A stretch of 64,000 nt of DNA from positions 18,478,001 to 18,542,000 of the forward strand of contig NC_087245.1 in assembly GCF_037042905.1 (NCBI RefSeq), given 5' to 3'. Both the position numbers and the translations under genes were made by a program. Below, in pieces: positions 1,942 through 45,153 of the stretch; position 1 is the first letter of the stretch; every line of letters starts with the position of its first letter. The stretch comes from Lytechinus pictus. Lineage: Eukaryota. The notes under the pieces were generated by a model that worked only from the letters and a program-made list of their open reading frames with translations, was not told the origin of the DNA and made no database searches.

Positions 1942-2412
1942 GACACCGTTCTCACTACCTTCCTAAAACTAGTTTACTGGAAACCAGTTAAGTGGAAACT
2001 ACATGTAGTTTAACGTGTAATGACAATGGTCGAAGCAATATTGGAAGCGATCTCCTAAACCAGTTAAGAAAACCACCTCGCGATGTAGTTTTTAAGATCG
2101 CTTTGCCTTGTTAAACTGGTTTTAGCGTAAGTAAAGGTCACAACCATTCTTCGGGAAGCGATCTTCGCACATTTTGAGCGTGCTTCTCCACACGACAGGT
2201 GTAGAATGCCTACGCTGTGGTTTTGAATTTGACGCAAAACTTGTCACCCCACTGAGAGCGTTTCCATAGCAACAAGATCGCTTTAAGTGAAGTGACTTTA
2301 AAAACCACTTTCGTGTCATCAAATGAAAACGCTAGCAAAGCGATCTTCCGAACTGGTTTCCTGAACCGGTTTTCAGTAAACTAGTTTTAGAAAGCGTAAT
2401 GAGAACGGTGTC
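1942..2412. mobile_element. MITE family A, 3-bp TSD (Harbinger-like)
   Basis: TIR GACACCGTTCTCA.../...TGAGAACGGTGTC flanked by TTT/TTT; same body as 16586-17048 and ~9790-10223. Confidence 0.85.
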
Positions 2413-3145
2413 TTTGTCTCAAAACAATTAGCATATCAATCTCGAGGGCAAAATATGCTGGAATTAGCTCTGTAGTATTATAGTAAAGGTAACGTTAGCA
2501 GCAGATAAATGAGATGAGGTGTATTTTTGCCTGAATTCATCTTTGGGGAGATATTAGAACATATTGTACATACATGTAGTTCTAATCTGTAAAGTTTGAT
2601 TTTTTGTTAAATGTATGTATGTAATTGGACTTCACTGTATGGAAATAAAAATCGAAGGCTGGTTCCCATGTTTTTAGGACTTAATTGCAGTGTCCCAACA
2701 AATTATGAACTACAACTTTCATATTTCATACACTTCAACATTTCCTTAATAAATAAAACACATTCCAAAATACATGTATCCCTTGAGAAAAACAAATTTT
2801 CAATATTTATGTACAGAAAAAAAAAATCCGTGATCTTCCAGAACTACCCTTGGGTTAAAAATGTTCATATCCATTATGGATGGTATTCAATATTCCCTCT
2901 AACAGAAGTACATCACAATAAATTGGCTTACATGAGAGTCCCCTATGGAAAAGTTACATCAATATTTTTTGTACATAAATAGCCTCATCTGACTTTCATG
3001 AGGAACCGAGATTGATTTTTACCCGAATGCACCAAACCACAAATTTGCTCTTGCTTTCTTCCTCTAGTTACAATACAGGTCCAATTCATTCTGCATCGAA
3101 GTTTAGTGACAATTGAAAAGATGTATTTGGAATATAATTTTATGT

Positions 3146-4160
3146 GGAGCGTTGTGGCCAAGTGGATTAATGTCTGGACTTAGAAACAGAGGATTGTGGG
3201 TTCATATCCTAGCCACACAGTATTTTCCTTCAGCAAGAAATTGATTCTCATTGTGCTGTACTTAACTCAAGTGAGGTACATATGGGCATGGACCTATGAA
3301 AAGATGGACGATTAACGCGAGCATTTCTTTGATCCAATGATAGTCACTGTCACCTGGTTATGCGCATCTTAATGAGAACATACAGGTGTTGTAACAATAG
3401 CAATTACCATGACTACCAAGGGTATCTGATCACTCAAAGACAGAACAGTTTCCCGGTCTTGATTTTTGTTGGCTGATACCCTGTTTCAGCATGTGCCTTT
3501 CAGTCAATATGCCTCATATGTGGAGCAGCAATCTTGAGAAGCAGACAATTTTTATGATATAAAATATGATATTATTCGATCCGCTAACTACCGCTCACAT
3601 ATAAGGACCTCATTAACATTGAGAGATACACGATCTATGTATGTTATGTGTCACATATATATCTAGAATATTATGGAGAAACTTAGGAAAAATGAATTTT
3701 AAATGGTAAAAAATCAATCACAATATTGCCTCTATATTAAAATATGCAGACATTTCCCCAAATAAAACACATGGAACTAAGATTAACAAAGATAAACAAA
3801 AACTGCACATCGATTTTCCATTATTTCAGTGATTTGTTATCAACTGCGCATACAATTTGTGAAATATAAATGTCTAATCACGAACTGCTTCAGTCCCTTC
3901 TCACGGTGACGACCATAGGACCAAAGAAGACTAGTATGAAGAGAATGCTATTCAGATGACAATTACAGTCACCTGTTAAGGAATTCATTATCAAAGCGAT
4001 GAATGTCCATCTCTTCATAGGTCCATGATATGGGTACCTGGCAAGAATTATTTCCTTGAAATGATTATGCGTTGTAAAAGGCTGTCTGCTTAATACTACC
4101 TGGGTAATATCCAAGTCCTTTGTACGCACATAGAGATCTGCACTTCCAAGAACTATATAT
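3146..4160 (+). mobile_element. tRNA-derived SINE, interrupted by a DNA transposon
   Basis: Head GGAGCGTTGTGGCCAAGTGG (box A) and GGTTCATATCC (box B-like). The body resumes after the insertion as ATATGGGTACCTGGCAAG. Confidence 0.7.
3287..4027. mobile_element. Non-autonomous DNA transposon with CATG ends and 7-bp TSD (P-element-like)
   Basis: TIR CATGGACCTATGAAAAGATGGAC / GTCCATCTCTTCATAGGTCCATG; TSD ATATGGG at 3280-3286 and 4028-4034. Confidence 0.8.
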
Positions 4161-4166
4161 TTTTAA

Positions 4167-6528
4167 AGGTCAAGTCCACCCCAGAAAATGTTGATTTGAA
4201 TCAATAGAGAAAAATCTAACAAGCATAATGCTGAAAATTTCATCGAAATTGGATGTAAAATAAGAAAGTTATGACATTTTAAAGTTTCACTTATTTGTTA
4301 GAAAACAGTTATATGCACAACTCAGTGACATGCAAATGAGAGAGACAGTGATGTCCATCACTCACTATTTCTTTTGCTTTTCATTGTTTGAATTATACAA
4401 TGTTTCAATTTTCACCAATTTGACATCAAGGACCAACTTGACTGAACTAAGCCTGAGTAGAATCGATTTTAAAATTGGTGTTCGATCGATGTCATTGAGC
4501 GCCGGTGCAGATTTTGCAAAATCGGTGCATCGAAAAAATTAATAAATAAATAAAAATACGTCGGCCGGCCGATTCGTTTGGTTCACACAATCAACCATCA
4601 AAATAAACAGTAATGTCCAACTTTACTACTACTTACTTGATTTGTAGTCCCCCAAAATGAAACCGATTGTGTAATTATGATGCCTATTCACCATTAATTT
4701 GAAGTTATTTCGATCATAGTTCGAGTCTTACTCGTTTGCTCGTGCCGAGATAATTTATGCACGATCGATGAATTCATGAATGGAAGTCATCGATCGTGCC
4801 GCGCATGCGCAGTACTATGCTTTAATCAAACCAGAAAATAGCTGGAAAATTGACGCGATCAACGTAAAATAAACCTTGCTATCATGAACAATATTAATAT
4901 CATGACCATAGAACATTATTTAATCGTAATATTTAACAATAATTTGCATATGATAATCATTAATGATGTGAAACGTTTGTATTTCAATTTTCAACGACGG
5001 ACATCATATATGACAATCGACTTGAGTGAGTGCACTTGTCTAAAAAAAAATTATCACGTCAGGATTGATTCTCGAACATTGTCAACATGCAGAAACTCTT
5101 TTCAGGAGCGTAATATCACCATATAACATTTTACATGACAAAACAGAGAAAATTGCGTTTGTTTTTTTTTCCCATCAATTTGAAGCTAGTTTGTGCCCAA
5201 CTTTGGGCTTTGATTTCATGAATGGAAAATATGGCCAACGTCAACGAACGCGCATGCGCAATGTGCTTCTTTTCTCGGAGCTCGGAGGAGACGTCCAGAG
5301 ATGGAATAAAAATAAAAATAATGCCAGTATAAAACTATTAATACTTCCATATGAACATGACATACTTTGCTGACATCGTCAATATTTTTAGTATGGCCAT
5401 AAAATCTTAATGAATCGTTATTATTTAACATCCAATAATAATTTATATGAATTTAGAGCTCGATCCGAGACATTCATATTTATTTTGATCGCATGCTCTT
5501 GTCTTGTGTCTAAAATTAAAAAAATTGGATTATCATATCAGGATTAATTTTCGAACATTGTCATAACTCATATTCCACGATCTTTCCTTACAATCGTTAT
5601 ATCAGCATTGAATACCAATTCAAATGACCATCCAGAGAAAATTACGTATTTATTCCCATCAATTTGGAGCTCATTTTGGATCCAACTACACAATCTCAGG
5701 CAAGTTACAGTGATCCCGCTGGTTGCACTTGTTTGCTGGCGCTGGCAAGCACGCCTGTCGTTTCGGGAGAGTGAGTGTAAGGCCGGGGCTGCGGGCGGGG
5801 ATGGTGTGTGCGAGTCTGGACCATGAATGCTAGTTGACCGAAAATCGTTCAGATCGACTCTGCATGATTCATGTCTTTGATATTGTTTGATTTTAAACTC
5901 ATATGTTGTCATCTGCAAATATCATTGTTGATGATATTTTGGGGAAGAATTCTGCATTGGTCCCCGGCTTTTTTGTTTTGTGATCATGGAAAATACAAAC
6001 AAACTTTGCTCTGTCATCTGCTTGTGCAACGCTCACCCGGCCAGTGCATACAATACGTGCGTAGCGCAACGACGCGACGGCCGGAGCTAAAACAAATTGA
6101 CTCGATTTTCCCCGCCGCGCCTTCAAAATTCGATGCGTCGATGTTCGATCGAATTAAAGCTGTCGAACACCGGTTTTCAAAATAATCGATAAGACTCAGG
6201 CTTAGACTGAACCATAAGATGTTAGAACAATACCACATGTTCAGGGACGAATAAAACTTTGTCTCACAGGACAATGAGGAGAGAATTAGAATAATTCATA
6301 TTTCATATAATAAAATACAAAAGAAATAGTGAGTGAGTGATGTCATCATTCCCCTCATTTGCATACCGACCAGGATGTGCATATAACTGTTTTTTTTAAT
6401 TAAGCGAAACTTTAAAATGTCATAACTTTCTTATTTTACATCCGATTTTGATGAAATTTTCGGTGTTATGAGTGTTGGATTTTTCTTTTATTATCCAAAT
6501 CAACTTTTTGCTGGGGTGGACTTGTCCT
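4167..6528. mobile_element. TTAA-targeting MITE family B (Kolobok-like AG..CT ends) carrying a nested element
   Basis: TTAA|AGGTCAAGTCCACCCC ... GGGGTGGACTTGTCCT|TTAA; long imperfect palindrome; at least 4 sibling copies in the window. Confidence 0.88.
4448..6204. mobile_element. Non-autonomous hAT-like element nested in family B
   Basis: TIR TAAGCCTGAGT / ACTCAGGCTTA; exact 8-bp TSD GACTGAAC at 4440-4447 and 6205-6212; CpG-rich. Confidence 0.85.
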
Positions 6529-9507
6529 TTAACATCATCATTATTATTTGTCTATATCAAAGCTAGTATTAAAAATCAATTACAATTTTCAAAATTTCAG
6601 AAAAGTGAAAAGAAAATGTTTGATTAATAGTACTACATTTTGGGGGGACAATCTGTTAAAACTCATTTACATAAGCATTGGTACATGAGATGACCGTTCA
6701 ATATTTTTTCATCCGTCGATTCTTTGTATAATTTAATATTAAAGGATGTTTGGTAATCTCTCTCTCTCTCTCTCAGTAATGTTTTTTTTCTTAAAACATA
6801 AATGTGAAATAAGATTTTAAAATAATGAAAAATTAAATCAACCCTAATATGGACTTTGACCTGCTTCTCTTGGCTTTCATCAAGGCATGCATGCTTGCAA
6901 GGATAATGAATAATCCCATATCTCTCTTGCCACCTAGCCCTGGATAGCACACTTTTGTTTTGATTTCAAAGGGGCCCCCATCCGTGGTATGCTTCACCGC
7001 AAATGCAATTTCAACAGAAAAATCAATACTGGAAAGTTATCACGTGAAAAGAGGCTCCATATTCAGATAATATTCCATCCCTGGGAAAGAATATATACCA
7101 ATCATGATGAAAGCTAGCGGATTGAAAGCATTTTATAATTTCTTTCTGTAGTGACTTTAATGGATAGTAAAAACTACTTGTGAATGATAAGCGATTCCTC
7201 CTAACAATTAGCAAAGCTTCTATACCTTAAACACATGTTTTACATGTTTGGGGCACTTATGGCAAATAAAATATAAAGATTTGAACCTGCCGATTTTTTA
7301 CATTTTGTGAAAAACCAATCTTTATAACTTGTGTCAAAAGAACAAAAAATCAGTTCTTAAAGACTAAGTTTCTACAGTTGGGGAAAAAATCAGGAAAAGT
7401 TTATATGTTTTTTTTTATTTATAAATGTTTAGGGTAGGCCTACAAGTAAATGCATACATGGATATTGGTCTGGATTTTCACGCAACCTACATGTACAATG
7501 CCTAAAATTAGGATGAATTTATTGAGGTTACACTTTTTACTGTGAAAATTTTACATGAAAGTGCTGGAAAAACAAGACCAATACATTGCACACTCATCTT
7601 GATTTATAATAAGATCTTACTTATCAAACTTGTCAGTACGATCTTGACAAAAGATCAAATATTCATTCACATAAAAACAATGTAGACAGACTCCTTCCTC
7701 TGTTCTTTTTTTATTATTATGAAAAGGGTTGTCATGACAACTTACAACCATCAACAAAGTTTACAATGCAGTATTTCCTGCAAAGCCTGCATACAGCTAC
7801 ATGTACATGGTAAAGGCTCAATAATGTGAATTTTGCTAATTATCATCTTTATGTAGGCCTATAGTAACATTCCAATCAATTAAGTGTTATGACTGTTCAA
7901 TATATTTTCATCCCCTGAATAGACATTGCCTCTTTGTGAAATTGTGAATTTTGCATTTGAGGATGTCACGCCTTTTTTTATTTTCATTTTTAATTTTTTT
8001 AATCAAAACAAGCCCTTTGAACACTTAAAAATACAAATTTAGTGACTGCATAATCAGACAGTTTCAGAGATTGTATCTTCCTTTCTCTTTTTTTTCTTTC
8101 CTTTGATTTTTAAAACACATTTTCAAAGTTGTTCAGCAAATTTTAAAAATGATTTTCAGAACAATGGTGTTCAAAGAAACATGAAGATATCTTTCAAAAT
8201 TCCAAATGATAATTAGTTGTACTTTAAAGTAAAATCATTTCATTGTCACTGATTGAATATTTTTCTTTTCAAACAGTATGCAAGTTGGAATTCCTTTTTT
8301 ACATACACTGTGTAGTTGTGAAGTATGAAAAAAAAATTGCATCCAGATACCCAGAAAATAACATGAATTATATTTTAATCAACCAAGAGATGGGGGATTA
8401 CAATATTGCAAGCTCTGGAGCATAAAAATGATAGTATATTAATAGGCCTACACATCCATATGTTCATAGCACCATGACCCATTATGCTTTTTAATAAACA
8501 GGCGGACGGGGTGAACTGGCGGGGAAAATAACCTTCTCTAAAAGTTTCTTCTTGGATTATCCCTTGGTATTAAATGCACATGTATCTCTCATGTCATTAT
8601 GTTAAGTTATGAGGTAAAGAAAGACAGATTTTTGTTGGCTTCGTAAGAATATGACATACAATACAATGTATGTCCCACATGTAGACATTAGTACTCTAAT
8701 AAACATTAATCAGCTTAGTTCAATATGGCCAGACGCACATAGGATCGGCAAGCCTACATGTAAAAACTGTAACTCTAACCTTAACTCAATATTTTCTCTT
8801 ATGCATTTTGTTTGAAAATTTCATATAAAAGTCCTACTGAAGTGTGGCCAGACCATTCAACTTCCATGCCTGCAATGGATAATGTTTCGATTTGGTGGCT
8901 ACGCTCCCTCACTTGTGTCAGTGTTCTATCATTCAGAAATTTGTAAAGTGTGAAAGTGGGTCTCGAGTTCAAAAGGGTGAGAAGCACTGCTTTACTGTAT
9001 GTGTAAACAATGCCATTTTAGCTGATGAATCTCAAGTAACATATTATGCCTTCATGCAAGTGTATGCAATGCAAGTCATGTGCAAGCTTCTCGGGTATCA
9101 AAATCACACTCCATACATATGGCAGTAGAGTGAAAAAGGTATTCAAGTCAGGGATACGACAATGATCAATTTACACAATGAAAAGAAATGGTAATGAACA
9201 TCCTTTTGGGCGTAAATTGACAAGGGTGGGTGACGTGAAGGATTTCTGGCAGTTTTTTGCAAAGCGGGTACAATTGGTGCTTGCATACCCACAACGTAAG
9301 AAAAAATTATTGGAATTTATTCCAGTGAAAATGTTTTTAATAACCCTTGAAAAAAGACAACACCTACAAGCTAGAAGATACATGCACACTTCAAAATAAC
9401 AAGGACTTTTTGCAGGGATTTAAAGGGTTGAAGAGATTTATTACAGAAGTATGCTGTACAACTGGCCAGAGCCTGTTCTAATATCAAAGTGTTAGGACTA
9501 TACTTAC

Positions 9508-9580
9508 TGTTCCCTGTATTGTATATTGCCTTTATACTTTTTCTCATCTTATTTAGCCCACTCCTGTCTGAGTCCAGGGT
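9508..9580 (-). CDS. ASAP: ASAP-family Arf-GAP, second coding exon (start of BAR domain)
   Basis: Acceptor ttatctttgcag|, 73 nt encoding TLDSDRSGLNKMRKSIKAIYNTGN plus 1 nt, donor |gtaagt. Phase 0 start fits exon 1. Matches the ASAP motif LD.DR..L.KMKKSVKAI..SG. Further exons were not found in the window. Confidence 0.93.
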
Positions 9581-9789
9581 CTGCAAAGATAAGAAAAATA
9601 GAAACATATAAAATATATTACTATTATTTTTTAATAGACCTTTCATGTACAGTACTTTGTAATTGGGAATCGCATTTTGAAATATAAATGGATACACTTC
9701 TGGAAAAAGTACAAGAATGTGTATCCCACTTTCCCCGAATGACACCTTTTACTGCTATTACTACTCAAGGACCCCCTTCTTATTACCGC

Positions 9790-10223
9790 CCTAAAACTTG
9801 TATATTGGAAACTACATGTACATGTAGTTTAACGTGTAATGAGAATGGTGGAAGCGGTCTTGGAAGCGATCTTCCAAACCAGTTTGAAAACCACCTTGCT
9901 ATGTAGTTTTCATGATCGCTTCGCCTCGTTAAACAGGTTTTAGCATAAGCGAGGACACAACCATTCTTCAGGAAGGGATCTTCGCACATTTTGAGCGTGC
10001 TATTCCACAAACTATGAGTAGAATGTCTACGCTGCGGTTTCGAATTTTGCGCGAAACATGTCACCCCACTGAGAGCGTTCCCATAGCAACAAGGCCACTT
10101 TACGTGAAATGGTTTTGAAAACCACTTTCGTATGATCAAATGGGAACGCTGGCAAAGCCATCTTCTTAGTTTCCTGAACCGTTTTCCAGTAAACTAGCTT
10201 TAGAATGTATAATGAGAATGGTC
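9790..10223. mobile_element. MITE family A, degraded copy
   Basis: Colinear similarity to 1942-2412 and 16586-17048; ends eroded. Confidence 0.75.
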
Positions 10224-10669
10224 AAGTTCTACCTCCTACTAATATCACACAAGATTATAATTCATTGATTTCTTTTTGTCTACAATTCAGAAGTCACCCA
10301 AGTTTATAGCAGGATGGTGCATGCACATCCCTCCTGGCAAAGTCGGAAAATAAACATTATTTACAATATCTTTGTCAAGATATAAAGCATATGATGAGAG
10401 GTCATTGAATGTGATCTTCTTAGTTTCCTGAACCGTTTTCCAGTAAACTAGTTTTAGAATGTATAATGAGAATGGTCAAGTTCTACCTCCTACTAATATC
10501 ACACAAGATTATAATTCATTGATTTCTTTTTGTCTACAATTCAGAAGTCACCCAAGTTTATAGCAGGATGGTGCATGCACATCCCTCCTGGCAAAGTCGG
10601 AAAATAAACATTATTTATAATATCTTTATCAAGATATAAAGCATATTATGAGAGGTCATTGAATGTGAT
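10160..10669 (+). repeat. Near-perfect tandem duplication, 254-bp period
   Basis: ATCTTCTTAGTTTCCTGAACC...GAATGTGAT begins at 10160 and again at 10414, with only a few substitutions. Confidence 0.92.
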
Positions 10670-13357
10670 AGCTGTCAGTCTAATGGCACATTTTTAATAT
10701 ACTGCATTAAAAAGAATAAACTTCGGAATACAGTTTCAGGGTGTCATTTATCTTGCTAATAACCTGCCTTGTTTTACAACCAGGAAATGTGAACAATCAA
10801 AGAAGAGTTTAATGCAGCAATGTTGTATACTGGATATGCCTATGTATTGTACTGTGTACAAATCCTGAGTGAAGACTTCCCTATTCCAGGATTAAATAAA
10901 GATAAATTAAAAAGCAATCTATTGTCATTACTAATACCGGTGACCCTGCACTACACCTCTGCTGACCTGCCTCTGCATATACACATACATGTAGGCCTAG
11001 TTCAGCAAATTCCTCAAGGGGATATATTTTTTTTAATTCTAAAAAAAATGTTAAATGCAAGACGAACTTAAATAGTCATATTATAATCAAATTTAATATA
11101 AATCATTGCGACATACGGGTCAGTCTTTTAGAGTGCAAAGGAGCTTCAAAGGAACATGATTTGGTGAAATAAAATCATTGACTTCTATTCAATTCTGCTT
11201 TGCCTCAATGAATAGAAGGTCGACTATTTCACCTTGTGCAAAATCTTTGCACTGTTTGATATTTCCATCCCCATCCCGATATTCATCCCAGATGGACAAC
11301 GAATTCTCAAAAAAGGTATACAGATACAGATAATATACAATAATTCTGAATGAGAGCTCTTTCTACATCTTTGCAGAAAAGTTTCCAATAATTATTTACA
11401 GGGGCTATTTAAAACCCTTGATGACACTATAGCATTTGAGAGGGGGGTTGCCCTTATATAGCCCCCCAGGTAAATTTCCCCTGATATATAGTGAGTGAAT
11501 GACCCCTCTATTTGTGCCCTAATTCTTTTTTGCATGCAAGGAGCATGAATATTTTATCTAATTATCTCTGGCTGAGCTGAGATGAGACAGGAAGATCTGT
11601 CAATATAAATCTACAGTGGATCTTTACAGGCGACTGCCTCGGCATCCATTAATAATGAATCCAGGTTCAAATGAAGAAGATACTGTGATTGCATGAAAAT
11701 AGATGTTTGCAAGTTAGTGCAGTGGGTGCATATCATCATTTGCTCACAAAAATTATACAGATCGCTAAAGCTCAAATCTTCCATGACAGATCATTAATAA
11801 TGCAAAGCCCTTTGGGATTGGGAGAGTAGCTCAAAACACATGAAATGCCACATTCAAAAAGACATCATACCATCAATATCAATATGCTATATTATATAAA
11901 TGTGCTTTTTACATGAACATCAAATTTTATGAAATATGTAATGCTACATGTATGATTGTTTGCCTTTTCTCTATTTTGGGGTGGTCTGATTTTGTGGTCT
12001 GAGGGAAAGACCATGAAAAATGTATAGTCAAAATTTAGTTCTAGTTTTCAATAAACTATCAAGTATTTCTGTTGCCACATTGTACATGTTTTTATGTAAT
12101 CATACATTCTAAACAATATACATGTACATGAAACATGTAGGTTCGAGCACCTGGAATGAAGTACTGAGACAACAACACAGGGACAAATCACTTCCTTGAA
12201 ACCTGAAAGACTAGATTCAAGTTCAATTGAAGTGGGCGATACCTGCAGCTGGTAAAGACATCATTTGAATTGAAGAAGATGATGATGATCATTGGTGGTG
12301 AACTAGTATGGCCTGTTCAGATGACAAGGTATTTTACAAAACAACCACCCACATACATGTAAGTTTATTATTTTTACAAAAAGGGAATAATCAAACAGGC
12401 ATAACACAGAAATTTTATTATTTCCAGAAAGGAAAATGAAACACATTTAATTTAAATTAATGAATCCAGTTTCATTAGGTTTCAAAACACAATGATTATG
12501 TACAACACGAATTGGTGGTACACACTAGGGTCAATGACAACACATTATTACCTGTTCATTTGTACAATATAAGGACTACATGTATATGAAAATATCAAAT
12601 ATTTCATTTTTCCTCCAATAACATTATCATGGTTTTACTCCAGCATTGTTGAAAGCAACTGTGATAACAAGTAGAAGCCTTTTAATAATCCAATCCACAC
12701 ACATACATGTAAATGGGGGTGTTCATTATCAATTTTAATATACTAATATAAAGCTTTTTAATCAAATGTTCATACACATGAACACACTCATCATTTATTT
12801 GTACATGTACTTGTAGCTAATACAAGATATTGGTTTTAACAAGGCTCAGAATGAAAGCATTAAAACCATATCACAAAGCATCGGTCTTCAATATGAAACC
12901 AAGTGAGTGCATTTACCACCATTACCAAGTCCCTCTGACAGGAATTCTAGCTGTCAGTCTAAATCAAGTTTACACTTTCTCAGCAGTTGTGTTGATCCAA
13001 TCAACCACAATACAATAATTTTTATTAGTCTGAATGAGGGGTCTTCATAAAAGCAAGTAAAGTGTGAATGTCAGCAGGTGGAGGTTGTTGCTTACATCCA
13101 ATGACTTTAACAGATGGAGGAACAGGACAGACTATTTTCATCTTCATTTCAATGGAAATGATTTCACCTTAGAGTTGGAAAGACTCTTGATGCACCCGAG
13201 GTCCCTTCATTCATGAAATTGCTATCAATAATAAAATGAGGATCAACATTTGCTAAAAAAGCTACTTGTTATTTGCTGTTGATACATGTACCTATACAAA
13301 GAGGCCTGTTTCATGAAGATTTATTTATGATAACTACCACGGAAACCTTCATTTTGA

Positions 13358-14143
13358 GGGTGCGTTTATCCGCCACTTTTTTACCCTAGAATCATGATCT
13401 GAATCATGATTCAAATCATGATTCTGCAGAATCACGATTGCGTTTAGTCGAAATTGAATATAATCATGATTAGAATCACAAACATGAAACACGAAAAAAG
13501 GGGCGTTTGGAAAGATGTTTCTACAGAATCACATACGAAAATGTTCGAATAAACGATATCGTGATTACAATCATGATTCTATGACGTCATTGTGTCGGGC
13601 TACTTTAGGTTTGACTCTTGCCAAGCTTAAGACGCGCTGTGCTCAGTGTATTTATACATAATATGATATGCATGCATTCTGTGTTGGGCATCGCATCGTC
13701 CACTTCTTTTCATCTTCTTTTTGGTCATGTCTTCAACTTCAAGTGAACTAGTAAATGAACTAACTGAACAGACGATGATATCAATTGTTGTTGAGTTAAC
13801 AAGTGTCAATATGAAATTGGATCTACGCTAAAATTTACATCCGAACACAATTTTCGATAAACCGACAAGAAGAATAATAAGTAAACAAATTGTGGTATAA
13901 TAGACTGAATTCGGAAGGTACAGGATTGATTTTTCGAGAGCCAAAACACGTGCGAAAAAGTTGACCCAACTTCCTCTGTCAAACTGCGCACTGTGATGCG
14001 CACTGGATCGGTCCGAATCCGAGGAAAAACAGCTTTAAAATGAAGGTCGTCTGAACGCTGATTCTGTGGTATTGTGATTCATGTTTGTGTTTTAAATCAT
14101 GATTCAAATCATGATTCTGGCTTGAGGTCGCATAAACGCAGCC
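13358..14143. mobile_element. Harbinger-like MITE nested in a smaller degraded MITE (~13301-14226)
   Basis: TGA|GGGTGCGTTTAT ... ATAAACGCAGCC|TGA; subterminal GAATCATGATTC repeats. A related fragment lies at ~21891-22105. Confidence 0.8.
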
Positions 14144-14419
14144 TGATTGGCTCCTGAGCCCTACTTCAATTATGGCAAAGTTACCACATTTTGTATTTTT
14201 TGTATGTCCTTTGTGAAGCAGACCCCTGAACTCTTGTTAAATAGAGGAATTCTTTCTTTCTTTCTTTTTAGAATTTTCTACAATTTTCTGATCCTCACTT
14301 AACAAAATTTTATTCAAAATTGACTTAATTCCTATAAACATTCATGTTCATTAATTTATAATGAAATTACAAAAATTAAGCACTCGAGAGAGTGGATTTG
14401 GCACTATACAAGTCACATT

Positions 14420-14540
14420 TATCTTTATCATTACTTCTTTTATTATTATTATTAGTACTATTACTATCACTATTACTATTATCATTATTATTATTATCAT
14501 TGTTGTTGTTGTCACCATTGTCATTATTATTATTATTACA
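14420..14540. repeat. Degenerate trinucleotide microsatellite (TTA/TCA/TTG)n
   Basis: Visible 3-nt periodicity; source of the Ile/Asn-rich spurious ORFs. Confidence 0.9.
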
Positions 14541-15543
14541 CAAAATAAAAATAAATACACCCTGATAATCAATGATCATAGGAGCTGCAATAACTTCCCA
14601 AATCTTATACAATAAGGAATACAAGGTAAATCTTCCATCTCGCTTTCCAAAGACAGACCATCATCATGATACCGAGCTATTATCCACCTATTTCTTCAAA
14701 ATAGGTTGTCCTTTGCATGCTTGAATGGGTAGAGTACCGGTAGATGTTGAAAACAAAGCTCTCCGCTGATGATTTCTTTCATCCTCTCTGTAATAAACGC
14801 GAGATACCAGGCAAGGGACTGAGATGGGCGAGGGACTGAGAAGCGTAAATCATTTATGTGACGCTCTGCCTAATGTCACATGAAAGGAAGCTATATTCTT
14901 GCCATTTATCTCCCCCTCCTGACCAACACCCCGAAGTGTGTTTTATCAGATCTATGGACCAAGTGATAATGATATAAGTCTGTTTCTAATGCACATGTAC
15001 CATTACCAAGTTTAATATCCACTTATTGTTTGCTGTTTGCATTTTCTTAGGGTTTTTTTATCTGATCACATTGTAGTGTAGTGCAATAATTGAAGCATTT
15101 AAATGGAAGAGAGAAGGCATCATAACCACTGAAATCTATATATTTCACAACGCACATACATACGCCTTTTTAATAATAAGAGCTTCAATGACACATTATT
15201 CAGTAGGCTGATGGGTTATAGTAAATTGTCAACAATTCTACATAAAAGAAATCATGTGCATGTAATACATGTATATGTGACCTAACATGACTGTAACATA
15301 TTAAAAATCAAGAAAAACATGAATGTTCCCTGAAAGAATGATTAAATGGATTAGGCCTAATAGATTAATGAAGTGATTACAAACATAGAAAGAAGATATC
15401 TGCAAACTAAATAAGCATGAAACATTTTGAATGTCAATTGATTGTACCCTTTTTGCATGGATAACACTGTACAGTTATTTGAGACCATGATTTGGGGAAA
15501 GTGTATAAACACAGATGGGTTCTACACCAAGTGACCTATCAAA

Positions 15544-31654: not shown

Positions 31655-32136
31655 AGGTGGTTTCAGACTGCCTCGAAGTTCGTCAGTTCCAGGTATTTTC
31701 TGATCGGGAAATTTACCCCGATCAGAAAATACCAGGTAATATTGGCAATGTGAAAGCAAATTACGCGTAATCTCCCCGAAAGAAAATACCCACTAAAAAG
31801 TAGGTACTTGTCAAAATTACGAGAACTTTCGCAGGGATTTTTCCAAGGTCGCAGGTATTTTGGCAATGTGAAAGCAATTTTTTACAGGAAGTTTTAGCCC
31901 AGCGTGTAGTTGGGCGCGGGCCCCTTGGGTGGCTGCTGAGCTAGTGATTTTGAATCTCGTGCCTCGCTTGCTTATCAGACCATACTGCGCATGCTCATAA
32001 CTTCAGGAACTTATCCCGAAGGGTATGTTACGGGGGGGGTGTGAATGTGGGAATAATTAACGGGTATTTACTTGCCTGAAAAAAGTTCTCGTAATTTAAC
32101 GGGGATTCTTGTGATCGAGGCGGTTTGAAACCACCT
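31655..32136. mobile_element. MITE family E (3-bp TSD, Harbinger-like)
   Basis: ATT|AGGTGGTTTCAGAC ... GTTTGAAACCACCT|ATT; inverted sibling at 36226-36701. Confidence 0.88.
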
Positions 32137-32647
32137 ATTGTCTTATCCTAGTGCCTCTACAACCATTTTGTCTACTACTGTTAAACCTAAATACCATCCC
32201 GCTATACATTGTATACCATTTTTTTTTCAATTCTTCATTTTAAAGGCTATACCCATTTCGACTATTAAATATACACCACTAATTTTATACTATTAAATTA
32301 AATGTATATGATTCAAATTTCCATTTGACGAAGTGCAAAATGATTAGTAAACCGAAATTAGACTATACAATAGATAGTACCCGGTAGATCAAATAGGTTT
32401 AGCCCATCATAATGTGGTATCAGAATATAAGAAAACTACATGTACACCTGTACTGCTTGCAGTAAAAAAAAGTGATGTATTTTTTATATATTTAAGAACC
32501 TAAAAAAATGTGTCTGTCTGACAATGTTTGGACAATTTATTTTGTGATTTTTTGCATATTTTTCTTCATATGACTTTTTGGCACAAACAGTTCCTAAATT
32601 CATCATACATCTTGGCCCAAGACTTATTATTCCCTTTAAAGTTATAT

Positions 32648-34184
32648 AACAAGTGGAGCGCCTCTGGCAGTCTCACCTGCATCCCAATTCAATATAGCAG
32701 CAGTGCTGACTTTGAAAACTACTAGTTATAAAATAATTATTTTAAAAAAACACCATTCATATAATGATACAATACTACGTCCATTGACAATAAATGACAT
32801 TTGACCTTGATCATGCGACCTAAGACTTGTCAGTGATACTTCATTGCCCCTATATCCACATTTTATAAACTAAATGTCTATAAACTTTGAAAGTTATGAC
32901 AGCAATCTAATAATTACCTCCAAAATGGCCAAAGTTCAATGACCTTACCTTTGACTTTGGTCATGTGACCTGAAACTCGCATGAGATGTTCAGTGATACT
33001 TGATTACTCTTATGTCCAAGTTTTATAAACTACCCGGTAGATCCATACACTTTCATAGTTATGATGGTTATTCAACAAATACCCCCAACATGGCCAAAGT
33101 CCATTGACCTTGGTCATGTGACCTGAAACTTGCACAGTACTTGATTACTATAATACTCTGATACCCCTTTCATAAACCCAATAAAACACAATTATGCGGC
33201 TAATAGCAGCATAATTTGGTCGTAAAATCAGAGGAGGACAAGAGTTATCCGCATTATTCTGATGCTGCTATTATCCGCATAATAGCGGCATCGGGACAAG
33301 ATTTTGAGTTTATGAACGTATTTCCAAATAATGCGGATAATTGCCATGGTGCGGTCACAAGGTCACCCTTTTCCAACACAACCGCATTGGAGGGGGCGTG
33401 TCCAGTTGTCATGACGATTATCCGCCTTTTTCAGGACGGGCGCTCGTAAAAATAATTTATGGAGTTTGTAAACGCAATTTTTATTGAATTATCCGCATTA
33501 CTCTTAGGCGGCTAATTGGAGGATATGTTTTATTGGGTTTATGAAAGGGGTATAAATGTCCAAGTTTTATGAACTAGACCAATACACTTACAGAGTTATG
33601 ATGGTAATTCAACAAATACCCCCAACATGGCCAAAGTTTATTGACCTTAAATGACCTTAGTCATGTGACCTGAAACTCCCACAGGATGTTCAGTGATACT
33701 TGATTACTCTCATGTCCAAGTTTCATGAATCAGATCCATAAACTTTCAAAGTTATGATGGTAATTCAACAGATACCCCCAAAATGGCCAAAGTTCATTGA
33801 CCTTTGACCTTGGTCATGTGACTTGAAACTCGCACAGGATGTTCAGTGATACTTGATTACTCTTATGTCCAAGTTTCATGAATCAGATCTATAAACATTC
33901 AAAGTTATGATGGTACATGTAATTCAACAGATACCCCCAACTTGGCCAAAGTTCATTGACCCTAAATTACCTTTGACCTTGGTCATGTGACCTGAAACTC
34001 AGGCAGGGTGTTCAATAATACTTGATTAACCTTATGTCCAAGTTTCATGAACTAGGTAGATATATTTTCTAAGTTATGCTGTCATTTCAAAAACTCAACC
34101 TTCGGTTAACATTTGGTGTTGACGACACCACCATCGGAAAAGTGGTGCCTATAGTCTCACTCTGCTTCACAGGTGAGACAAAAA
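32648..34184 (+). mobile_element. Helentron/HINE (pearl-like) non-autonomous element with an internal ~125-bp tandem array
   Basis: Starts AACAAG; subterminal inverted repeat GTCTCACCTG / CAGGTGAGAC; 3' hairpin GTCTCAC..GTGAGAC followed by AAAAA. About 7 units of GGCCAAAGTTCATTGACC..GGTCATGTGACCTGAAACTC..TTGATTACTCTTATGTCCAAGTTT. Confidence 0.7.
33162..33552. mobile_element. MITE family C nested in the tandem array
   Basis: Same TIR and body as 25401-25800. Confidence 0.88.
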
Positions 34185-35441
34185 CAGTGTGATTCATTTT
34201 TTTTTTTACTTTCAAGCACTAAAGGGCCTCATAACCATAAAGTAAAAATTACAGATTTTTAGTGAAAAAGGCTGATTAATAACACTCTCATATCATTCAA
34301 CCAATGAAAATCCTTCCCACCAGGAGGCAGGGCAAAGAAGCAATTGTTGTTGTTTTTTTTAGTCACCAAAAGTCTTTTGAAATATTTCATCATTCTACAG
34401 GAATTACGTTAGAGTTTTAAATGTCTGTGAATACATAATTTTTCATTCCAACATCTGGAGCAAATTCACCTAGAAATATTTCTAAAATTGACGACACAGA
34501 GATAAAATAGCCCCATCCTATTTCAATTTTTTTTTCTTCAAGTAACATGGGCACAAGCTTATCATCTGCTATTCCTTTTGTGATATTAAATGTTGGTCCC
34601 AGACGTAAATATTCATACACGTATACATATGTGATTAACACACATCTGCTTGCATTCAAATATACATGTACATCATCTGCATCGCAATGGTTAATTTTGC
34701 CAGGATATGTCTACGCAGGCACTGCTCTGCTCCACATCACGTTTAGATGCACAAGATAAAAATTAATCTCAGATAAAATAAGAAACTTTATCTACGAGTT
34801 CAAAAGTGATCTCAGAATACCAATTTCATTCTGAAGATCTGAATAAGAAAAATTTTTAAAAGAGAATAGGGAACTCACTGTACTCACAACAAACACCCCT
34901 GAATAGGCCAATTAATAAAAAAATAAGATTAAATTTTATGAAAATACGCATTATAAAAGAATGAGATTAATAGTATACAATAATGATATTTGTTTGACTA
35001 TCTGGAGTGTGTGCCAGATGTTGTGTTGCACAGTTTCACTGACTTGCATAACCACAACACAGACAGGGTGATTGCAGATTGCAATTGCCTCTCCCACGAC
35101 TTATCCATGACCAAGTTTCTTCCATTCCACAAAGCAAACTACAAACATTAAGAAGAAAGTAAACTGGATTTCAATGTTGACATCACATTTTAATGCAGAT
35201 GCTTGCTTATTCTTTGTCTGCTCTTTAACTTGATTTTGACTGTTATTATTAGGGCAGTTCCGAAAAGTAATCAACCTTTTTGTACATCCGACCCCCATTT
35301 TTCTCAAAAGAACCAGAAATCATAGACAGAAAATTTCATGGTCTCACATACATGGGGTCGGACGTACATATTTTATGAAATTTCCCATTCGACTTGGTCA
35401 TGGATGACTAGAAATGAATGATCAACATTTGTGAGACTAAT

Positions 35442-35652
35442 GGGGTGTTGCAAGAAACTTGCGATCAATTGCAAGTCTATTTTTGGTCCCTAAATCAATC
35501 ATATGTCTTGTAGTTAATTGCAAAATGTGATTGATTGCTCATCTGCTCCTTTAAACAAGAAGATTAATCTGATTTGCTACAGCTAACTTTGATCTATCAA
35601 TTGTAAAATTGAAACAGAATATTTGCAATTGATCGCAAATATTTTCTTGCAA
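35442..35652. mobile_element. Short palindromic MITE remnant
   Basis: TTGCAAGAAACTTGCGATCAATTGCAA / TTGCAATTGATCGCAAATATTTTCTTGCAA. Confidence 0.6.
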
Positions 35653-36225
35653 GTGACCGTGGCATGATTGTGATTGGCATAATTCATAGCCTGCAAACCC
35701 AAAACCAGTACGTGATAAATATAGATTTGATACAATCAGTTGGGGGATCCCACTCATATGCCCTCCCCCTTCATGAGAAACCCTTGGAGCCCCCTGCAAG
35801 CACAGACTCATATTTGACATTTTAACCAATACCATGTCTAGAGTGAAGACTAGATGCCAAATCTCTCTCTGTCTCTCTGTGTCAAATAGCCACAGTAGAG
35901 TATCCTGTCCGTAATGAGACATGTTAGCTTTAGAGCAGCAATATTTTTTTTTTTCAAAAATGTCTTTTCACAAAATGATATTTGCATCAATAGGCCTATC
36001 CAATTCACGTATCTTCTTTTACTAGAATCGCGCAGATATGTGTATGAGCAGACAAGGGGACTGCGCAGACTTGGGGAAACTTGCCATATGACTTTAATCT
36101 CCAGGATCCTCCTGGCTACTCCACTCCCCTCCCTCCCCCCCCCCAATCTTGTGACTCGTGTCATATCTCACTCACACTCAGCCTCACCTAGCCAGGAGGC
36201 TCCTGGAGATTAATGTCATATCACT

Positions 36226-36701
36226 AGGTGGTTTCAAACCGCCTCGATCACAAGAATCCCCGTTAAATTACGAGAACATTTTTAGGCTAAAAAATACCCA
36301 TTAATTATTCCTGCATTCACACCGCCCCGAAACATACCCTTCAGGATAAATTCCTGAAGTTAGGAGAATGCGCAGTATGGTCTAATAAGCAGGCGAGGCG
36401 CGAGATTCAAAACCACTAGCCCAGCAGCCACCCAAGGCGCCCGCGCCCAACGACACGCTGGGCTAAAAGTTCCCGTAAATTGCTTTCACATTGCCAAAAT
36501 ACCTGCGACCTTGGAAAAATCCCCGCGAAAGTTCTCGTAATTTCGCCAAGTACCTACTATTTAGCGGGTATTTTCTTTCGGGGAAATTACGCGTAGTTTG
36601 CTTTCACATTGCCAAAATACCTGGTATTTTCTGATCGGGGTAAATTTCCCGATCAGAGAATACCTGGAACTGACGAACTTCGAGGCGGTCTGAAACCACC
36701 T
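36226..36701. mobile_element. MITE family E, opposite orientation
   Basis: ACT|AGGTGGTTTCAAACCGCCTCGA ... TCGAGGCGGTCTGAAACCACCT|AAT. Confidence 0.88.
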
Positions 36702-36752
36702 AATGACTGTGCTAAATCTCCATGGAGCTCGGGACTGGATGCCATTGCTCTG

Positions 36753-37261
36753 CACGCACCAAGTATTTTGGAGACAACAATGTTGCTCCAAAATACTTGT
36801 TTTCTTTAGGGTTTTGAGCCCAAACAGGCAAAGTTATGTAAATTGGCTGCAATACTATTTGTAAGCTTTTGGCACTACAGAGACATATTTTTGAATAGTA
36901 TTTAACATAAAATTAAAGAAAATATCAAAAGTAGAGGAGCGTTTACTCACAGTCTGTTATGGTCGCCATCTTCCCGTCTTTGTTATCGTAGCCTAGCAGC
37001 TAGCTACAAGACGCGTATAGAGGGCGACAATATCATGAGCAGTGCTAACTTTTTTTTTTTTTAAATCGGCTGATAAATTTCATGAGTCTTACCTAAATTT
37101 ATTGGGTAGTAATACATTTCAAGATTTTATGAAATATTGAGATAATACTAAGGTCAAAGGTGAAAATAAACTTTGCAATTATAGTATTGTAGCCCATTTA
37201 CATAAGTTAGAAAACAATTAATTTGGAGCAACATTGTTGTCTCCAAAATACTTGGTGCGTG
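36753..37261. mobile_element. MITE with 40-bp perfect TIR
   Basis: CACGCACCAAGTATTTTGGAGACAACAATGTTGCTCCAAA and its exact reverse complement; flanks TG/TA. Confidence 0.8.
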
Positions 37262-37769
37262 TACTGTTATACAAATAATGCATGCAGCCGAGTGCGTTAG
37301 TGGAAATGCAGAGCACGCGAGGTTTCTTTAGATAGGTGCCGCACTGTGCACGAGCCGCTGGCGGCGAGTGCCCAGTGTGCTCCATCTGAAGAAACCGAGC
37401 TTTCTCTGCATTTACTTTTACGCACGACAGAGCAAGTGCATTATTTGTTTTATAAAATAGCAACACAGAAACAATTTTTTCAAAAGTTACAGTACAGTTT
37501 TGTTGGACTTCTACCGCACTGGTTTGCTAGCGTGCAATGTCAATTTTCGTTGCGCACCTTTTGCACAGCCGTGCAGTGCACAAAAAAAGTTGGATGTCAT
37601 GTGACGCATATTGGCCAATCGCGATGCTCGAAATAATACACCTATCTTATAAAGAGCAATGAATGGTACCGGTACTGACTACCATGACTACTGGCATCCC
37701 GTCCCCGTCCCTGGCGCAGGTCATGAAATACGCAGTGCGCAACGCGCAACCCCCATACGCGGTGTTAGG

Positions 37770-39006
37770 GAGGAAGATAACACGATATTTGGTATTCTGA
37801 AAATGGTGTTAGCTAAAATTTCGTTCAAAGATAACACGAACATTTAACACTGCATTAAGGAGAGGTTAAGTTGTGGATGACGATGGCTGCACTTTTTCTA
37901 GCAGACGCAAACGTCAAAAAGAACATATACGAGCATATAACTATCGTCTGGCAGAATTTACTGTAATTTTCTTTCATTTTCCAGCTTTATTTTCCATCTA
38001 CCTATCTCTCTATACTAACAATGATAAAACAACAATTTCTTTGGAATTTCCTGTAAAAATACAATTCAAATGCATCTTTGATTTCGATTAATTGAAATAT
38101 TTATCATAAATGCTCATTAGTTATTTATTTGGTTACTTTTTGCAATATTATAAAAAAGACGGATGGAGAGGAAGAAACTTTAAAACGTCTAAAAAAACAA
38201 AAACAGAAATTAAAAAGAATGGAATTGGCGATTGGGGAACTCTTCTATAATATTAACAATATTTTTACCCTTTTTCAATGGTTATATAGTTCCAATGATT
38301 ACACCTTTTTAACTCGATCGCTATACGCATCCAATATTTTAATAAAGAAAAAAATTACAATTTTGTATGTTTGATATTTCTATGTCAGATTTAATTTTTC
38401 TTAAAGTGCTTTTCATGCTTTTCAAAATTTACATTTCATATATATTTTTTTATGAATTATGCTTGCCCTCATATTTTAGGGGCGATCGTCCCCTGCCTGC
38501 TCCCCAATCGATCAAGGCCTCTGTCTCCTGTCATAATTTTGTATCCACGCCGTCTGACTCCATTCTGTGTTCTATTCTGTGTATATACGTTGTATCTACA
38601 TTATGTGTGTAAACCAGTGAAAGAAGAATTTCCTCTATGGACAATAAAGTTATTCAATTCAATATTTCAATTCAATTAAATTCTTAATTGTCACAATCAC
38701 CCCTCCCCACGTCTATTTCCAGCCCTAACTTTTATTTAGCTGTATGCGCTTACAAGATGATGTCACAATGCATGTTTCGTGTCACCGAGCGCGCAATTCC
38801 CCTTTTCCCTGAAAATTTTGCGCGATTTGACTTTAACAGCGCATTTGATTGGATTAAATAAATGCAGAGTGGAAGGAGCTGAAGATAACACGCAGATAAC
38901 ACGGTTTTCAGAATACCGATTTGGGGGTATGTTAGGGGCGTGTTAAATCAGAGAGATAACACGATATTTAACACGAAAGTTAACACGATTTTCAGAATAC
39001 CGCCCC
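37770..39006. mobile_element. Composite or degraded MITE region
   Basis: GGTATTCTGAAAATGGTGTTA at 37791 versus TAACACGATTTTCAGAATACCGCCCC at 38981-39006; repeated GATAACACG motifs at both ends. Confidence 0.45.
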
Positions 39007-39238
39007 AGGAGCCTCTCTCTCCTGCCTAGCCTGTTTTCAAGACATAAAATGGTGATTTCGATTAGCGGCGAATTTATTACCAGACCAAAGTCGCCTCGGG
39101 ATATCAAAATATATTTCAAGAAAATTTTTACATTCAGGTTCTATGCACAAACAACACAGCGCGAAGCGACACTGTAATATATCAATGCATAATACAGAAA
39201 CAGAATATTGATCAACCATCCACGCATATGATACACAC

Positions 39239-39364
39239 CTCCTCCAACGCGGAAACGACATTTCGGCAAGCCCCCATCCGAGCCACGAAATTCGACGTCG
39301 TCGGCGAACTGATGTCATCTGTGGTCTCCGCTAAGAACTCGGCGACGGTGATAGTGTCCGGCAT
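39239..39364 (-). CDS. ASAP: ASAP-family Arf-GAP (BAR/PH/ArfGAP/ankyrin/SH3), first coding exon
   Basis: Minus strand reads MPDTITVAEFLAETTDDISSPTTSNFVARMGACRNVVSALEE (126 nt, 42 codons), then donor GAG|gtgtgt, phase 0. Closely matches the remembered ASAP1/ASAP2 N-terminus (MPDQISVSEF..ET..D..SPT.S.F..R...CRN.V..LEE). CpG-rich context. Confidence 0.95.
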
Positions 39365-40441: not shown

Positions 40442-41177
40442 CAGTGCGTCCCACAAAAAACGAAACTGAGATTTATCATAACTTAATCACAAATACAATA
40501 GACAAATGACCTACCATTGTTAAGCTTAGGATCTCCTCTTTCATCTGAAATTACTTAGATTATTTCATTTGGCGGGCTATATCTGGGTTTCAAAAGAAAA
40601 ACCACATTTTTAAAAGGTTCAATATCTGCTCTTTAATTTGATACCTCAATTACAGAAAATGGTCAAGAAATAACAAAGTTCTGGTTATTTGAAATAAGGC
40701 TTGAATTTCAATAATTTCATAAAATGAAGAGGCTCTACAGGCTAGCGTTCAAACTCACTAGACACTCCGTTTTGTTGACGATCAGCCATAACCATGCGAT
40801 AGCTTCTGTGGGAAACCGGTGAAAACACATTTATTTAATGAAATTATGGAAATACAAGCAGTTTCGAAGGAACATAACTTTTTTACTTATTGACCATTTT
40901 TTTGTGATTAAGGTATCAAATAAAAGAGCAGATATTGAACTTGTTAGGCATGTGATTTTCTTTTTGAAATTCAGATACCCCGCCAAATGAGTTTTTGGTA
41001 TCCCTTCTTCAAATTGTTTTTGCTCACTCATGCGTGAATGAGGAATAATCTCAGTAATATCAGATGAAAGAAGAGATTCTAAGCTTTACATTGGTAGGTC
41101 ATTTGTCTATTGTATTTGTGATTAAGTTATGATAAATCATCGCTTAATCTCGGTTTCTTTTTTTCTGGGACGCACTG
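40442..41177. mobile_element. Tc1/mariner-like MITE
   Basis: TA|CAGTGCGTCCCA ... TGGGACGCACTG|TA; long imperfect TIRs. Confidence 0.87.
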
Positions 41178-42784: not shown

Positions 42785-43393
42785 AGGCCAAGTCCACCCC
42801 AGAAAATTTTTGATTTGAATCGATAGAGAAAAATCAAACAAACATAACGCTGCAAATTTCATCGAAATCGGATGTAAAATAAGAAAGTTATGACATTTTT
42901 AAGTTTCGCTAATTTTTCACAAAACAGTTCAATGCACAACTCAGCGATATGCAAATGAGAAAGTGGATGATGTCCATCACTCACTATTTCTTTTGTTTTT
43001 TATTGTTTGAACAATACAAAATTTTAATTTTTACAGATTTGACAATAAGGACTAACTTAACTTAACCATAAACTGTTAAAACAATGGTAATTCCACATGT
43101 TCAGTGAGAAATAAAACTTTGTTTCACTTGACAAGGAGGAGAAAATTAGAATATTTCATATTCCATATAATAGAATACAAAAGAAATAGTGAGTGGGTGA
43201 CGTCATCAGACTGCCAAATTGCATACCGACCAGGATGTGCATACATGTATAACTGTTTAGTGAAATTAAGCGAAACTTAAAAATGTCATAACTTTCTTAT
43301 TTTACATCCGATTTTGATGAAATTTTCAGTTTTTGCTTGTTGGATTTTTCTCTTTTTTTTCAAATCAAGTTTTTGTTGGGGTGGACTTGTCCT
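42785..43393. mobile_element. TTAA MITE family B nested in the hAT-like element
   Basis: TTAA|AGGCCAAGTCCACCCC ... GGGGTGGACTTGTCCT|TTAA. Confidence 0.9.
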
Positions 43394-43795
43394 TTAATGA
43401 ACTTACAACAGAAAAGTTCATATTTCCCCCAAAATTACTAAATCATGGAAATTGAATGCCTACAAAAAAAGAACACATTAAGTAATTTGACATTTTATTC
43501 CCTAATCTAATACATGAACATATACATGAGTCTGAATCGAGGGGGGGGGGATGGGGCGAGGAGAATTTGCACAATGGAAGAAATTGACGTACATGGGGTT
43601 TCAAAGCTTAATTTCATTACCGGTAAATCAATATGCTTTATTTCATTTGAATCAATTATACCAATTTTAGTGCATGAAATACAAATTCAATTCAAATCTA
43701 TAAATAAAGCCCTTGAACTACATATTTTTTAATTCAGGAATTCTGATCAAATGTATATTAAAAACAATCAGTAGGCCTATAGAATGTTTTTTTAA

Positions 43796-44473
43796 CCCTA
43801 CATTGTAATAAGACTGGGGGGGGGGGCTGATTCAGCCCCCCTCGTCATTTTTTGCGATAAATCCACTGCACATATTTTTTTTACCGCGTCACTCACAGAC
43901 TTTCCTTTTTCAAGTCTCACGCAACTTTTGAGACCAAAATTGCGACCCCCTGGTATGCGGTTCCGAAATTATGCAACATTTTGTAAGTGCATGCAGACCC
44001 AAAATTGCTCAAAAAGTGAATTTGTGTACAAATCTAATTCAAATAGTGTTTTTAGCCATAATTCATAAATGTGCCATTATTTTTCCTTTTACTGATTAAA
44101 ATAAATTAATTTCACCTTGTTTATGGTCAAAATATAGTCCCTGACTATTTCCATTGAAAAAACAATAAAAAACATAAAAAAATAAATGTGATGTTGAAAT
44201 TTTTTTAAAGAACATTTGATCAGATTCCTATAAAGGGTTTGTGAACCAAAAATGATAATTTCAGGGGCATTATTTAGTTAATTAGAGCAAACTTTTGATT
44301 TTACGCATAAATTAGTAATGAGATTTATGCAAAATTTGATTTGTAGTTTTTTAGATTATGCCATGGGTAATGCGTGTGCCAATTTTCGTTGTGATCCCGC
44401 GATCGACGGCCCAGATCATAAGGGGGGGCCCCCTCAGTCTTCTTAGGAAACAAAATAGCCCAGTCTATTTAGG
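43796..44473. mobile_element. piggyBac-like non-autonomous element, degraded
   Basis: TTAA|CCCTA...AGACTGGG at left and CCCAGTCTATTTAGG|TTA at right. Confidence 0.55.
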
Positions 44474-44992
44474 TTACCGGTATTATGTTTTTTTAAACTT
44501 TTTTATATTTCTTATGTACAGAGTTTTTAAACTTTTTTTTATTACTAATAGAAATTTTTGGCAATTTTCCAATTATTAACAATAAGTAAAAATAATGATA
44601 CAGATACGAATTTTGGCAAGAACTCACATTGGGCTTATACATGAAATCCCGTTTTTAAGCAATTCGGGATCTGATAATATGCACTTGTGGTGTATATCAT
44701 AACTGCATACCCATGCATTCATCCCAAAAATAGTCTTGAACGATATGGCGTGGCCCTGTCGTGTTTATGGATTTATCATAGAAATCTTTAGGGGGCCATT
44801 AAGGTCCCCTGGAATTGTTAGGGTTAAGGTTTGCTAGCTGATTATCTTATACTGTTTAAAGTACTTTTCTTCATCTTTATGAAGCGCAAAGTTTCACCAA
44901 CTTGTGTGTACCTCAAGAGTATGATGTCAGGTTTACAGAATTTGTAAAATATTATTGCACTTGTGCAACACTTCCATTTCATTCAAGTTCTC

Positions 44993-45153
44993 TTACATGT
45001 ACATGTATTTTAGCTTATTTTAATAGTGTTTCTTTACCTGTCCAAAAAGTGAGTACAACACTCAGATATATGTTTCTATTACATGTACATGTATTTTAGC
45101 TATTTTAATAGTGTTTCTTTACCTGTCCAAAAAGTGAGTACAACACTCAGATA
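44993..45153 (+). repeat. Tandem duplication, ~86-bp period
   Basis: TTACATGTACATGTATTTTAGC...GAGTACAACACTCAGATAT occurs twice. Confidence 0.88.

Follow-up and report, generated by a model that had tools for sequence, protein, structure and literature searches.

Recurrent insertion of TACATGTA at TA dinucleotides in the Lytechinus pictus genome, probably an excision scar of Tc1/mariner-type elements

Here we report the analysis of an abundant eight-base palindrome, TACATGTA, in a 64,000-nucleotide stretch of the Lytechinus pictus genome (assembly GCF_037042905.1, contig NC_087245.1, positions 18,478,001 to 18,542,000; hereafter the window) and in further DNA of the same assembly. The word is a recurrent six-base insertion at TA, and Tc1/mariner-type elements that end in CA...TG most likely left it behind as a scar on excision. 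TA has been converted to TACATGTA repeatedly and with duplication of the TA, elements with matching ends are present, existing scars are targeted again, and the scars cluster regionally. The pattern is real and far beyond chance, and the best reading is that a known type of transposon excision scar occurs here at unusual purity and scale. Excision footprints have so far been known from single loci and reporter assays, whereas here roughly every second derived 6-bp insertion found in repeats is one and the same scar.

The window holds 51 copies of TACATGTA, spread from position 2000 to 50261, against 2.5 and 4.2 expected under order-2 and order-3 Markov models, respectively, which bears out a preliminary description of this stretch in which the word was said to recur dozens of times. 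It is the top-ranked palindromic 8-mer of the window, and in 30 order-3 simulations it averaged 3.5 copies with a maximum of 7; two of the 51 copies are products of an 85-bp tandem duplication (44988-45154). In evenly spaced pieces of the genome (390 kb) we counted 91 copies versus 13.8 expected, and the whole assembly (812 Mb, 368 contigs) contains 224,046. The genome-wide excess is estimated at about 190,000 copies, corresponding to about 1.1 Mb of DNA; with TA sites estimated at 65 million, the excess occupies about 0.3% of them. Markov expectations served as the null, and the reversed control word ATGTACAT (85,448 copies genome-wide) was left unused, since it overlaps scar chains.

The preliminary description also proposed that in four unrelated repeat families one copy carries TACATGTA where its siblings have a plain TA. 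Alignment to siblings confirmed each of the five cases (starting at 2000, 9813, 26914, 33914, and 43242; Table 1) as an insertion bounded by TA, but family B can be aligned with family D, which leaves three unrelated families. Families B and D are very abundant TTAAAGG-ended palindromic repeats (window positions 6229-6532, 19654-20108, 25835-26237, and 42777-43400), one 24-mer of which has at least 3,170 exact copies genome-wide.

Insertions were then polarised by all-versus-all alignment of repeats, where a gap was kept if the bases were missing from two or more of the covering copies and from no less than 60% of them. Outside the window (1.39 Mb of queries), six-base derived insertions outnumbered those of five and seven bases (20 versus 11 and 11), and the inserted word was TACATGTA in 11 of the 20, so that CATGTA dominates over other 6-bp insertions; the remainder comprised two TAGGCCTA, one TACCGGTA, two one-base variants, and four others. 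TA was duplicated in all 11 polarised TACATGTA insertions, four of which sit in repeats of one dense block (L304). An earlier tabulation that included the window gave nine of 15, and the window-free set is the cleaner one. Two of the 11 five-base insertions were of the TACAGTA/TACTGTA type. Six deletions of six bases were apparent; one of them, a rotated TACATG, was rejected as a loss, because two siblings share the scar and one lacks it, as for an inherited scar. In a comparison between individuals and with a relative, contigs of four sequencing runs covered the unique stretches of positions 10701-30700 with gaps; none of the 12 indel rows listed of 724 falls at the motif, which is no evidence either way.

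The TATA site of family B allows the same change to be followed genome-wide. Exact empty copies number 3,170 and length variants 189, so that plain TA is the majority state, as expected if it is ancestral. By hand count of 100 listed variants of the 189, 26 carry TACATGTA, and among the 29 rows with a six-base gain 22 are exact scars, nine at the first TA and 13 at the second; other words in the same set are TACCGGTA, TACCGTA, TACTAGTA, TAGGCTA, and TACAGTGTA. TAATTA replaces TATA in seven of these 100 variants, a +4 change. The family-A site has seven variants, of which three are exact scars and two are one-base variants. Carriers are scattered over a tree that was inferred from 86 family-B copies with the site itself left out, and placing them in one clade is rejected (p-AU 0.0007 for five carriers and 0.003 for seven), with the caveat, unfavourable to recurrent scarring, that unrelated flanks give some rows long branches and the bootstrap is unsettled. 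A single origin of the family-B scars is thus rejected; the insertion is recurrent and derived from plain TA. Of 328 loci with the family-B site, 30 were read, and because they include eight with a scar (over two TAs) against 13 T-to-C and four A-to-C changes, the scar frequency per TA is about that of one transversion.

Two sister words, TAGGCCTA and TACCGGTA, are also inserted at TA. The observed/expected ratio is 9.7 for TACATGTA, far above chance, 8.4 for TACCGGTA, and 17.9 for TAGGCCTA, which is thus even more over-represented (10 versus 0.3 expected in the window; 154 versus 8.6 in 1.45 Mb of analysed DNA). TACAGTGTA/TACACTGTA were counted 54 times versus 16, and TACAGTA/TACTGTA are enriched only 1.5-fold (354 versus 233). 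These counts bear on the origin of the word by substitution, through CpG decay of TACGCGTA, a route which would be in line with the fall of motif density with CpG observed/expected (rho -0.38, p 0.0006; 79 random 10-kb pieces). Decay of TACGCGTA is excluded, because it would enrich TATGCATA and TACACATA as well, and neither is enriched (50 versus 56.8, ratio 0.88, and 87 versus 113, ratio 0.77); in addition, the alignments contain gaps, not substitutions, and motifs are few in low-CpG 3' gene regions. We regard this explanation, which the preliminary description had named as a possible refutation of its own reading, as already refuted. The other two outcomes that it had named in this way, CATGTA being no commoner than other 6-bp insertions and TACATGTA being ancestral, did not appear either.

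In Tc1-type elements the cut falls two bases inside the end. An element of this kind would insert at TA and duplicate it; excision in the germ line would leave two terminal bases on each flank; and the two non-complementary CA overhangs would be filled and joined to give TA-CA-TG-TA. The scar, which would be nearly neutral, would persist as the element disappears, and scars would accumulate far above the number of resident elements. The scar series agrees with this logic of element ends, as TA-CA, TA-GG, and TA-CC inverted-repeat families all occur, the latter two (found in the 1.45 Mb) fitting TAGGCCTA and TACCGGTA. CA...TG ends are carried by MITEs (miniature inverted-repeat transposable elements) with CAGTGCG ends and by an intact Tc1 family with CACTACT ends. 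The three CA...TG-ended elements noted previously in the window (Table 1) are all present and TA-flanked, reading TA-CAGTGCGTCCC...GGGACGCACTG-TA, and are non-autonomous because no open reading frame (ORF) exceeds 95 amino acids. A source of transposase exists in the genome: matches to the DDE_3 domain fall in 364-aa open frames of near-identical copies, the young Tc1 family having TA-CACTACTC ends and a median identity between copies of 99.4%. Elements of this family (L240-L269) are about 1.9 kb long, and many copies contain two head-to-head or inverted transposase halves.

The flanks of scars are non-random at positions -1 to -3 only, where T is avoided at -1 and A is favoured at -3 (p at most 1e-10), and both resident families, the CAGTGCG MITE and the CACTACT Tc1, share these two preferences but otherwise match the scar flanks only in part. 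Existing scars are re-hit above chance, giving doubled chains: CATGTA directly follows the motif 28 times versus 2.9 expected, and 21 doubles and one triple stand beside 496 singles. Ends of the form CAGTGCGT abut a scar in two of 58 cases versus about 0.2 expected, a small number that agrees with the re-targeting of CATGTA. In locus L135 (7400-10000) intact and decayed scar words saturate the DNA, with 16 in one 2-kb bin; repeated scarring has therefore reshaped the local composition. To the right of the window, at a distance of about 46 kb (L134:6800-7690), a TACATGTACATGTA chain contains an 886-bp element whose ends read GGGGAAGGCGG, and a different family has therefore landed in a scar chain.

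Several observations weigh against excision of CA...TG elements as the source. A CAGTGCG or CACTACT element was not found at the family-B site genome-wide; of the two matches, the one read was a substitution and the other was letter-identical to it. From the scar-to-element ratio we would expect about one or two elements there. The middle state of the series from TA through element to scar is unseen at that site. In favour of excision, one family-B copy (L224) retains GCACTG before a TA, the six bases with which elements of the CAGTGC type terminate. In the 1.45 Mb we counted 541 motifs but only about 14 TA-CA elements that can still be recognised, scars exceeding elements by about 35:1, and resident elements are not enriched in scar-dense DNA (0.24 and 0.30 per kb in the flanks versus 0.25 per kb at random). 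The base at -1 is A in 38 of 43 Tc1 ends (88%) and in 71% of 55 MITE ends, a set biased by the flank of the query, versus 39% of scars (C 18%, G 25%, T 18%). No +4 change of the TACATA/TATGTA type occurs among the 100 listed family-B variants (hand count), nor among the 32 four-base insertions outside the window. In C. elegans, taCATGta has been called a rare footprint of Tc1 (PMC3520976) and the somatic Tc1 footprint is typically +4, in 78% of cases (PMC13148408). Of the preliminary description's excision reading, which is supported in part, the recurrent insertion at TA stands, and the CAGTGCG elements that it pointed to are no more than candidate donors, as none was found at the family-B site and the flanks differ; the excision step and the donor are our inference.

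The same observations bring in a different, unseen donor, either a TA-targeting element with CATG ends that leaves a four-base footprint of one end, or a hit-and-run transposase that is now rare or extinct. Neither resident family accounts well for the scar flanks, the few elements present do not lie where the scars lie, and the survey of transposases covered the best 150 of 729 DDE_3 candidates and three of 76 DDE_1 matches. We consider this explanation unlikely: no repeated TA-CATG-ended family was found among the inverted repeats of the 1.45 Mb, where the TACATG matches were scar chains, and a single rule of two bases from each end most simply covers the GGCC and CCGG scars that occur in parallel. 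Among the scored DDE_3 candidates no link to the CAGTGCG MITEs was seen. One pogo-type family was rejected as donor, as the three of 76 DDE_1 matches read are copies of one 514-aa family without TA-CA ends; this family (L312-L314) is at least 3.6 kb long and 96-98% identical between copies, and the stretches read show no obvious terminal inverted repeat.

Motif density is patchy (variance/mean 3.3), and the four densest blocks in 664 kb of contiguous DNA each lie on the 5' side of a gene found by its Pfam exons. The blocks examined appear to be first large or 5' introns of ASAP-, phosphatase-, Smad-, and spectrin-like genes, a lead that extends to these blocks and not to the genome as a whole. 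Overall, the blocks have 1.2-3.3 motifs per kb versus 0.05-0.4 per kb. In the ASAP-like gene, which continues to the left of the window with BAR, PH, ArfGAP, ankyrin, and SH3 exons at a distance of 19-48 kb, likewise on the minus strand, the density is 1.19 per kb over the 35 kb that follow exon 1, 0.56 deeper, and 0.31 in the exon-dense 3' part. The dual-specificity phosphatase gene has 2.58 per kb 5' of its catalytic exon versus 0.11 beyond, the Smad gene 1.35 between the MH1 and MH2 exons versus 0.12 upstream, and the spectrin gene 3.29 5' of the calponin-homology exons versus 0.41 in the repeat exons; all these densities include exons, in which the 3' parts are richer. Weakening the 5' pattern, the four blocks were chosen for high density, and gene ends were deduced from Pfam exons and a rise in CpG, not from transcripts; genes were sought in 145 of 274 and in 150 of 567 candidate ORFs, so that some may be missed. 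Methylation alone is insufficient for the 5' bias, because the 3' gene parts are equally CpG-poor or poorer. Under the excision reading, the concentration would likely come from insertion or excision favoured by germ-line transcription.

The 5'-intron enrichment could also be expected of a transcription-factor site that selection maintains in first introns, and TACATGTA is cited as a preference of the Irx homeodomain (PMC3520976) and as bound by PsMyb37 in Phytophthora (PMC11134190). Such selection could account for the clustering and not for the origin of the word, and we hold it to be highly improbable. The scars lie inside repeats, including the four polarised insertions in the L304 block; family-B copies with a scar have 1.18 motifs per kb around them (11 copies) versus 0.31 around those without (44 copies), and this fourfold richer surrounding therefore points to a regional rate; the sister scars partly occupy the same dense blocks. 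All of this fits a regional mutation rate. The strong association with 5' gene regions would equally suit a transposon-independent repair or slippage process that places CATG palindromes at the TAs of transcribed DNA, as would the CATG duplications present among the four-base insertions outside the window and the lack of a donor at the family-B site. It is nevertheless improbable, given that the family-A site offers no local template for the inserted CATG, that the word recurs in unrelated contexts with the TA always duplicated, and that the sister words match other element ends.

We tentatively extend the excision reading to a hit-and-run transposon that acts as a fixed-word mutator, which would write TACATGTA at favoured TAs at about the rate of a single transversion, leave tens of scars per surviving element, re-hit its own scars, and concentrate in the 5' introns of germ-line-transcribed genes. 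This broader proposal is possible rather than probable; if it is true, scar density would be a fossil map of germ-line transcription obtainable from one assembly. On the excision reading, the scars record far more past transposition than the surviving elements reveal, and the 5'-intron bias gives a way to test whether germ-line transcription and transposon turnover are linked. There is also a caution for motif finding, in that a palindrome that abounds in first introns may have arisen by mutation and not be a selected binding site.

The features of the window are collected in Table 1. Just right of it, integrase-like and reverse-transcriptase-like fragments (L130:6713-7554 and 8588-9055) suggest the remnant of a tyrosine-recombinase retroelement.

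Table 1. Scars, candidate elements, and gene features of the window
Feature	Position	Strand	Remark
TACATGTA insertion (+6) at TA, family-A copy	2000..2007		32 of 34 covering copies without the insertion; plain TA at 16644
Doubled scar TACATGTACATGTA, identical family-A site	9813..9826		Plain TA at 16644
TACATGTA insertion at TA, family-D copy (D related to family B)	26914..26921		Compared with 28969
TACATGTA insertion at TA, one 153-bp tandem unit	33914..33921		Compared with five sibling units
TACATGTA insertion, first TA of family-B TATA site	43242..43249		Compared with 6382, 19958, and 26087
Sister scar TACCCGGTA, 7-bp insertion at TA, tandem-repeat unit	33031..33039		Absent from the preliminary description
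Sister scar TAGGCCTA, 6-bp insertion at TA in repeat	62985..62992		3 of 4 covering copies without the insertion
Doubled scar, present twice via 85-bp tandem duplication	44994..45093		
TAGGCCTA positions	7435, 7854, 8443, 10992, 15352, 27693, 35991, 43772, 55382, 62985		
736-bp non-autonomous element, TA-flanked, CAGTGCGTCCC inverted ends	40442..41177		
1,816-bp non-autonomous element, TA-flanked, CAGTGCGTCCC ends	47760..49575		Near-identical copies across the genome
1,845-bp element	56972..58816		Family of the 47760..49575 element
Scar-dense block, 42 motifs (1.19/kb), putative 5' intron region of ASAP-like gene	4001..39200	-	
Putative first coding exon, ASAP-like gene	39239..39364	-	Weak match to ASAP3 N-terminus, E 0.068
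ORF with RNA polymerase 7-kDa subunit exon (RPABC4/POLR2K-type)	47110..47343	-	

A genome-scale report of a TACATGTA scar in animals was not found in the literature searched, in which subscription journals are largely outside coverage. The primary study of Tc1 excision footprints in C. elegans is reportedly that of Eide and Anderson (1988). The C. elegans Tc1 system shares with Lytechinus the word taCATGta, the TA duplication, and the CA...TG element ends; there, however, +4 is typical, whereas here +6 dominates, +4 is absent among the 100 listed variants, and about 190,000 sites are inherited. Sleeping Beauty, which cuts three bases inside its ends so that the footprint is the overhang (PMC7827188), likewise duplicates its TA target and leaves terminal overhang bases after end joining, but its three-base overhangs give a +5 scar, the counterpart of the weakly enriched TACAGTA/TACTGTA. 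Footprints of the ZB transposon measure 0-3 bp (PMC7913693), and a study of the amphioxus mutation rate did not score indels (PMC12862219). In rice, excision of DNA transposons has likewise been treated as a force of genome evolution, mostly near genes, yet the excisions seen genome-wide are heterogeneous, with eight of 94 perfect and the others showing deletions and fillers (PMC4423477), in contrast to the one fixed six-base word that dominates here. The same palindrome is abundant in Phytophthora, where it is known as motif-1 or AM-20 and one tabulated site is doubled as acatgTACATGTA; there the word is read as a transcription-factor site and an origin as a footprint is explicitly dismissed (PMC3520976, PMC11134190). 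If a transposon does act as a fixed-word mutator, the TACATGTA "promoter motif" of other lineages could share this origin and have been adopted later by DNA-binding proteins.

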